From a virus (lineage: Duplodnaviria; Heunggongvirae; Uroviricota; Caudoviricetes): a DNA stretch of 22,029 nucleotides. The notes under the pieces were generated by a model. The model made no database searches. It had not been told where the DNA came from and worked only from the letters and a program-made list of their open reading frames with translations. This document shows positions 1-462 of this stretch, in pieces (within the stretch, counting starts at the first letter, position 1; the number at the start of each line of letters is the position of its first letter). The stretch is from the IMG/VR virus record IMGVR_UViG_2531839665_000007, positions 1-22,029 of that record; one strand, given 5' to 3'. A program made the position numbers and the translations under genes.

Positions 1-138
1 TGTTACCGGAAGACGCCGCGAAACATGCCCTTCGTTCTGCCAGAGCCTGAGCCATTTGAAAATAACATTATCATTGACGCCATTTTCTCGTGCAATCTGT
101 GTAACACAAGCTCCAGGTTGTGATGCCAGTTCAACCAT
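1..138 (-). mobile_element. Partial IS-type transposase OrfA-like helix-turn-helix ORF, running off the window start
   Basis: Minus-strand frame from ATG at 138 reads MVELASQPGACVTQIARENGVNDNVIFKWLRLWQNEG...; the same frame upstream reads ...AKRTS(stop)KYSNEFKLR, resembling IS3-family OrfA N-termini (YSxEFK...AVEL motif plus HTH). Start is uncertain and there may be a nonsense codon or frameshift. Not in the ORF track because it is truncated by the window edge. Confidence 0.35.
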
Positions 139-327
139 ACGAAGTTTGAATTCATTCGAATACTTTTACGAGGTTCTTTTCGCCAGTCCTGTAATTCCAT
201 ACTTAGATGTCCGTCTGTGTCAGATGGGCGTCTAAGTTACCAATTCTTGTCTAATGGCTACATACGGCGGTCGGTTTACGCTTACTCTAATTCGTCAGAT
301 TCTGACCAGACGGTTCAGGCTGTACGC

Positions 328-462
328 TTACGATTCTTTAGGCAGATAATAATTTTGATCAGCCCATTCAACTGCCGTCATTGGTACAACCCTGACCAGA
401 GGCTGCAGCGCAACCGAAACGGCAGCCATCATATTATTCAGTTGTTGCTCTGATATATTCAT
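328..462 (-). pseudogene. A: Terminase large subunit (lambda gpA) N-terminal remnant, 43 codons then stop
   Basis: Translation MNISEQQLNNMMAAVSVALQPLVRVVPMTAVEWADQNYYLPKES matches the lambda gpA N-terminus (..TAVEWADANYYLPKES); start overlaps the Nu1 3' end as in lambda; in-frame TAA at 328-330 and no gpA-like continuation in any frame downstream. Confidence 0.75.

Follow-up and report, generated by a model that had tools for sequence, protein, structure and literature searches.

The left end of the stretch of phage DNA analyzed here (22,029 bp; hereafter, the window) very likely represents the left junction of IS66-family DNA within terL, which encodes the large terminase subunit of a lambda-like prophage; this junction falls at the terminus of a draft contig. 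When the 44-aa terL product was looked up by exact match, the window proved to be the entire contig AFAA02000009.1 of assembly GCA_000194495.2 (22,029 bp). Position 1 is thus the contig end and lies 331 bp into a repeated IS that would have been uncrossable for the assembler, and a single IS end is visible within the window. An IS-interrupted terminase gene in an E. coli prophage is a real but ordinary finding, of a kind that is already known. Whether the interruption belongs to the window's own prophage is a separate question, and we lean, with moderate confidence, toward a true interruption in terL of that prophage. At the opposite side, the right contig end falls in an ead/Ea22-like gene, which is another mosaic prophage region, and the final 290 bp (21740-22029) diverge from strain JB2 within this gene. 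No integrase or attachment site was identified in the 22,029-bp window.

Truncation of the terminase gene

Along the minus strand, cosN comes first at the left end, followed by Nu1 and then by the start of terL, which overlaps the 3' end of Nu1. The terL remnant (gpA-type large terminase; 332..462, minus strand) corresponds to nucleotides 1-131 of the gene, or codons 1-44. It begins with the ATG at 462-460 and encodes the product MNISEQQLNNMMAAVSVALQPLVRVVPMTAVEWADQNYYLPKES in 44 sense codons, the final base of codon 44 being supplied by the IS. The TAA stop codon (328..330, minus strand) is provided by the inverted repeat of ISEc8 (G-TAA-GCG). The sequence-only reading of this DNA had placed the end of the gpA-like open reading frame at 328-330 after 43 codons; the stop position was confirmed, and the codon count is corrected to 44. 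The intact terL gene of strain C7 reads ...CCT AAA GAA TCT TCA TAT GGT..., whereas the window reads ...CCT AAA GAA TC/G TAA GCG TAC..., with the slash marking the break between terL nucleotides 131 and 132. Window position 332 is precisely where homology to intact terL genes ceases. When the stretch 332-1400 was compared with 5,426 complete E. coli genomes, matches of up to 99.9% identity were obtained, and all of them stopped at 332. In strain C7, whose terL is intact and encodes 642 aa, the corresponding start of the gene is 100% identical to the remnant.

No continuation of the terminase was found in any of the three minus-strand frames, in agreement with the earlier claim that no frame continues gpA. 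The accompanying claim that a transposable element cut terL short also stands, as IS DNA adjoins the gene at 331/332. Full-length TerL relatives contain both the PF05876 (ATPase) and PF20454 (nuclease) domains, and a Pfam search with the 44-aa product matched no family. This product is a remnant devoid of the ATPase and nuclease domains and is not a functional member of the gpA family. The 44 retained residues presumably correspond approximately to the N-terminal segment of gpA to which Nu1 binding has been ascribed.

The gene for the small terminase subunit, Nu1 (434..940, minus strand; longest open reading frame 434-1045), is intact, as the sequence-only reading had proposed. Its product matches PF07471 with E = 5.8e-21 over profile positions 4-163 of 164, and M36, encoded at 940, fits the start of the Pfam profile. 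The stretch 332-1400, which includes Nu1, is 99.9% identical to strain C7 and, being of equal length, contains no indels. The 12-nt cohesive-end sequence cosN is located at 1157..1168 on the minus strand, where it is read directly as GGGCGGCGACCT; the plus-strand letters at these positions are its reverse complement, aggtcgccgccc. We take GGGCGGCGACCT to be the cosN sequence of lambda.

IS66-family elements at the junction

The junction is composed of terL (nucleotides 1-131), the first 46 bp of ISEc8, and a second IS66-family element. The ISEc8 part (286..331, minus strand) includes the left inverted repeat GTAAGCGTACAGCCTGAACCGTCTGG... and adjoins terL. It matches, in 46 of 46 positions, the left end of an element 2442 bp long with the 8-bp duplication GGTATTTC; the TnpC protein of the latter element is named 'IS66-like element ISEc8 family transposase' in RefSeq, which is the basis for the ISEc8 name used here. 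The second element, approximately 2.5 kb in size, is represented by its left end (1..285, minus strand), with the repeat GTAAGCGTAAACCGACCGCCGTATGT running from 285 downward, and leaves the contig at position 1. It is nested in ISEc8 at ISEc8 nucleotide 46, and the stretch present in the window shares 95.5% identity with nucleotides 1-286 of a copy that is 2504 bp long and has an 8-bp target duplication on its flanks. Two terminal repeats of the GTAAGCG type are therefore found on the minus strand, at 331 (ISEc8) and at 285 (second element). A reading in which window 1-331 belongs to a single IS whose repeat lies at 331 was rejected, since copies with target duplications place the repeat at 285. 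From intact provirus copies in IMG/VR with 8-bp target duplications, GTAAGCGTAAAC(C/T)GACCGCC... was recognized as the actual left repeat of the element that carries tnpA. Target duplications of 8 bp were observed in 15 cases among the reference IS66 copies, in addition to GGTATTTC of ISEc8. As a whole, window 1-331 is 99.7% identical (with a single gap) to the copies located beside efa1/lifA in strains E2348/69 and JB2.

The second element contributes the 5' part of an IS66-family tnpA gene (1..200, minus strand; PF01527), which starts with the ATG at 200-198 (MELQDWRKEPRK). HTH_Tnp_1 (PF01527, E = 7e-12) is the sole Pfam signal of the open reading frame adjoining terL. An IS-like open reading frame with a helix-turn-helix that leaves the window at its edge had already been recognized from the sequence; the minus-strand frame ..KYSNEFKLRMVELASQPGACVTQIARENGVNDNVIFKWLRLW.. 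is real and does run off position 1, and its product belongs to a transposition protein (PF01527). Its N-terminus is not open, because a stop codon directly precedes the frame. In the window, tnpA has a run of four adenines (A4) at 165-168 in place of the A5 run of other copies, a 1-nt frameshift that puts the HTH part, KYSNEFKLRMVE..., out of frame with the tnpA ATG. The A4 form was found in none of 5,911 matching records, the best of which is 99.7% identical to the window. The intact TnpA protein, as encoded on contig AFAA02000029.1 of the same assembly, has 141 aa. The full set of tnpA (PF01527), tnpB (PF05717), and tnpC (PF03050, DDE_Tnp_IS66) is present in the RefSeq copies and on AFAA02000029.1; the window itself holds the 5' part of tnpA alone, and tnpB and tnpC are seen in the homologous copies and on that contig. 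The tnpC gene of the IS allele found in the window is frameshifted in strains E2348/69 and 2013C-3264.

These features bear on the family to which the open reading frame next to terL had been ascribed, namely an OrfA-like protein of the IS3 family. IS3-family elements carry orfA and orfB with a programmed -1 frameshift, end in TG...CA, and generate duplications of 3-5 bp. We rejected this assignment in favor of the IS66 family: the ends in the window are GTAAGCG, and the equivalent open reading frame in the 99.7%-identical copies is named 'IS66-like element accessory protein TnpA' in RefSeq and is followed by IS66 tnpB and tnpC. The resemblance to IS3 OrfA can be explained by the scope of PF01527 (HTH_Tnp_1), which covers IS3 OrfA as well.

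The right-end sequence ACGGTGCTCCGTTGACGCTTAC of the IS66 subgroup to which the second element belongs was observed at approximately 50 sites in 66 proviral stretches of IMG/VR, and many of the copies with this right end are 2532 bp long with clean 8-bp AT-rich duplications. The number of different sites suggests that this subgroup often inserts in prophages.

The same junction on a second contig

Contig AFAA02000029.1 (10001-13462) belongs to a different lambdoid prophage and carries an identical junction of terL, 46 bp of ISEc8, and the second IS66-family element. The two contigs have 646 bp in common, of which 315 bp are phage DNA and 331 bp IS DNA; the sole difference within this tract is A4 versus A5, and beyond it the contigs diverge abruptly. 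AFAA02000029.1 differs from the window in the N-terminal part of Nu1 and in its late region, which encodes DUF1737/SASA, PerC, and DUF3950 proteins. It crosses 3.3 kb of repeated IS DNA and stops 61 bp before the end of an ISEc8 copy. Since an identical 646-bp junction lies on the contig of a different prophage, the insertion may belong to either prophage or to both. Gene conversion between prophages is one way in which both could have come to carry the junction; otherwise, one of the two contig ends would be an assembly redundancy.

Under the latter explanation, the junction would exist once, in the prophage of AFAA02000029.1, and the window contig would have been extended into it via the common 315 bp, its own terL (intact) and morphogenesis genes being located on another contig. 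We regard this as a possible but less favored alternative to a true interruption. It is consistent with the abrupt divergence of two contigs that are otherwise identical over 315 and 331 bp save for A4/A5, and the presence of the same composite at the same nucleotide in two prophages is improbable a priori. The assembler does attach collapsed repeats to contig ends, as seen from the 3.3 kb over which AFAA02000029.1 runs into the IS, and terL is intact in every other examined copy of the window's prophage type. Error-prone reads are suggested by three further 1-nt homopolymer indels relative to JB2. However, an intact terL with the same 315 bp should produce a fork at nucleotides 131/132 and stop both contigs there, and neither of them stops; the A4/A5 difference likewise indicates that separate sets of reads underlie the two contig ends. 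An IS-bearing tract could moreover have been copied from one prophage to the other by gene conversion, which is common between co-resident lambdoid prophages.

The three homopolymer differences, relative to the 99.6%-identical JB2 sequence, are G3 versus G4 at 19145 and A5 versus A6 at 19150 (both in gam), and A4 versus A3 at 19737 (bet), which leave neither gam nor bet with a continuous reading frame in the window. Homopolymer-length differences in an assembly are typical of 454 data; the split frames represent either sequencing errors of the 454 type or real decay of the Red recombination genes.

Distribution of the junction

A junction-centered query of 400 nt did not retrieve the terL-IS junction from any of the 5,426 complete E. 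coli genomes, and the junction was absent from GTDB species representatives and metagenome contigs. In IMG/VR, it gave one match, 100% identical to AFAA02000029.1 and probably from the same genome; a search of IMG/VR with the window contig found no provirus from the same genome. Among IMG/VR proviruses with the Nu1 type and the exact terL motif of the window, terL is uninterrupted in all 11.

If the ISEc8 end entered terL by transposition, an 8-bp duplication AAAGAATC would be expected, and the predicted right junction would read ACGCTTAC-AAAGAATC-TTCATATGG, that is, the IS end, the duplication, and the continuation of terL. The predicted combination of IS end, AAAGAATC, and terL had no matches in IMG/VR, GTDB representatives, or metagenomes. 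The 66 IMG/VR loci with the same right-end sequence have approximately 50 different flanks, none of which is terL.

Several candidates for further copies were considered and rejected. Contigs from four other draft assemblies end at terL nucleotide 131; they were not accepted as independent support, because nucleotide 132 is a wobble base and such ends are more simply explained by forks between co-resident terL alleles. Contig ends commonly carry N-terminal TerL fragments of 36-48 aa. With respect to the 3' part of the gene, M61 is the first available start codon under all three junction scenarios. A predicted 601-aa 3' form of TerL (starting at K42) does exist, but its contig starts at terL nucleotide 122 with phage rather than IS bases, and a predicted 582-aa form (starting at M61) is located at an unrelated contig start. 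By exact look-up, neither form derives from the assembly of the window.

Origin of the IS DNA

Of the 5,426 complete E. coli genomes, 64 contain the joint between ISEc8 (46 bp) and the second element, with 83 occurrences in total. At 82 of these 83 places it is flanked by the same IS256 fragment, an arrangement that is the one found beside efa1/lifA in the copies examined. The constancy of this flank suggests that the joint is essentially a fossil of one island context rather than a freely mobile element. The IS DNA of the window is the island allele, 99.7-100% identical to the efa1/lifA composites. In AFAA02000029.1, a complete inverted ISEc8 is nested 15 nucleotides into tnpC, as in the island copy of JB2, and the IS part of this contig, including the nested ISEc8, is 100% identical to the JB2 efa1-island copy over 3.3 kb. 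Judging from these sequence relationships, the DNA at terL appears to descend from an efa1/lifA-island composite.

Since the hybrid is not normally mobile, as judged by its single flank at 82 of 83 places, simple transposition is not the only route by which it could have reached terL. Three routes can be envisaged. In the first, the composite would have transposed by means of the outer left end of ISEc8 and the right end of the second element. In the second, a different unit would have moved: in a JB2-like ancestor, ISEc8(1-46), the left part of the second IS66-family element, and the inverted ISEc8 would form a unit of approximately 3.4 kb. With ISEc8 left ends in inverted orientation at both borders, this unit could act as a composite transposon extending from the 46-bp ISEc8 left end to the inverted left end of the nested ISEc8. 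In the third, recombination between an ISEc8 insertion in terL and the 46-bp remnant would invert a part of the chromosome and split the prophage. That the junction is real in both prophages and the IS is the island composite, brought in either by the ~3.4-kb transposon followed by gene conversion or by 46-bp recombination with inversion, appears unlikely overall. If the DNA does derive from the island composite, either through an ISEc8-bounded transposing unit or through recombination at a short remnant of an IS, the window would offer a minor documented example of IS DNA moving between a pathogenicity island and a prophage.

Head and tail genes

The lack of head and tail genes after cos and Nu1 had been taken as a sign that an IS-mediated deletion removed the morphogenetic region. 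Our results do not support this proposal. The window is a whole contig that ends inside an IS, so the point at which these genes disappear is an assembly boundary, and the sibling prophages carry head genes. These siblings, in strains JB2 and C7, are 99.6% and 99.5% identical, respectively, to the window over 332-21739. In both, an intact 642-aa terL is followed by the gpW, portal, protease, decoration, and capsid genes; the JB2 sequence also shows the tail genes that follow these and then EspJ/NleG effectors, next to torT.

A deletion or another rearrangement could nevertheless have removed or displaced the rest of terL together with the head and tail genes, leaving a truly cryptic remnant. 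In one variant, an ISEc8 insertion in terL recombined with the 46-bp ISEc8 remnant of the efa1/lifA island, fusing the prophage to the island and splitting it by inversion. Taken together, deletion and this variant are improbable. The variant accounts for the identity of the junction IS with the efa1/lifA composite, which has the same joint at ISEc8 nucleotide 46, the same allele, and the nested inverted ISEc8 seen on AFAA02000029.1. As the composite is tied to one context at 82 of 83 places, recombination fits no worse than transposition does. Bet and Exo, both encoded by the prophage, can recombine DNA over about 40-50 bp; however, bet and gam appear frameshifted in the window, and 46 bp is little homology for a RecA-dependent event. 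Were the DNA between the prophage and a distant island deleted, core genes would be lost with it, hence inversion alone is plausible. As to a deletion, the window stops in the IS, and the absence of the 'missing' genes from the contig differs from their absence from the genome.

Other features of the window

At approximately 8146-8175, the window contains five copies of the hexamer AAATAG versus one copy in JB2, a difference of 24 bp. This tract forms the spacer between the HNH/NinG genes and a divergent 590-aa open reading frame, and it could be a slippage-prone tract upstream of the latter. The 590-aa open reading frame (8526-10298, plus strand) lies on the opposite strand within the nin region and encodes a hypothetical protein conserved in JB2; it had no Pfam or PADLOC match and is considered a putative moron-like cargo gene.

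A two-gene unit (15639-16945, plus strand) encodes a 180-aa protein and a 258-aa DUF1828 protein. It is situated directly downstream of the cI-like S24 repressor gene (14834-15541), in the position of rexAB in lambda. The DUF1828 protein has a weak match to the PADLOC candidate defence family PDC-M24B (E = 6e-7), and the unit may be a superinfection-exclusion or defence module.

Implications and comparison with known systems

Judging from its sequence, the 44-residue TerL cannot package DNA in cis, and this copy cannot supply terminase. The prophage alone would thus be unable to make terminase, and a co-resident lambdoid prophage could still cut and package its DNA; such packaging in trans would be possible because cos and Nu1 are intact. 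The insertion has little importance beyond its source strain. Among the routes by which prophages decay in EHEC and EPEC, IS insertion into genes of lambdoid prophages, those for terminase among them, is well described, and prophages that have decayed in this way can still be mobilized by their neighbors. Two lessons are of wider use: a contig end within a repeat mimics a deletion when only the window is seen, and prophage segments held in common can put one junction on two contigs.

In comparison with lambda gpNu1/gpA, the window has the same overlap of the Nu1 and A genes, a lambda-type cosN, and the conserved N-terminal motif VEWAD.NYYLPKES, whereas all catalytic parts of gpA are absent from its TerL. 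Relative to intact ISEc8 and other members of the IS66 family, the window retains just 46 bp of ISEc8, its second element is truncated where the contig stops, and its tnpA is frameshifted. The sibling prophages of JB2 (next to torT) and C7 have the cos, Nu1, lysis, Q, nin, O/P, and immunity genes in common with the window; the JB2 prophage differs in its ~25 kb of tail genes and EspJ/NleG effectors. The efa1/lifA composites in the EPEC/EHEC islands of E2348/69 and of O55:H7, O103:H2, O121:H19, O145:H28, and JB2 strains contain the same ISEc8(1-46)-IS66 joint and the same allele. Their outer flank is the IS256 fragment (82 of 83 places), in contrast to codon 44 of terL in the window.

The closest parallel in terms of function is prophage Sp4 of E. 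coli O157:H7 Sakai, in which nu1 is disrupted by an IS and which is still packaged, probably by the terminase of Sp14, the cos sites being nearly identical (Asadulghani et al., 2009; PMC2669165). In view of this precedent, the earlier description of the window's prophage as packaging-defective holds in cis, given the 44-aa TerL, but not necessarily in trans. Like the prophage in the window, Sp4 is a lambdoid prophage of a polylysogen with a terminase gene inactivated by an IS and with cos retained (PMC2669165). In Sp4, the gene hit is nu1, and a finished genome gives the prophage in full; in the window, the gene hit is terL, and the insertion is a nested IS66 composite of which one side is seen.
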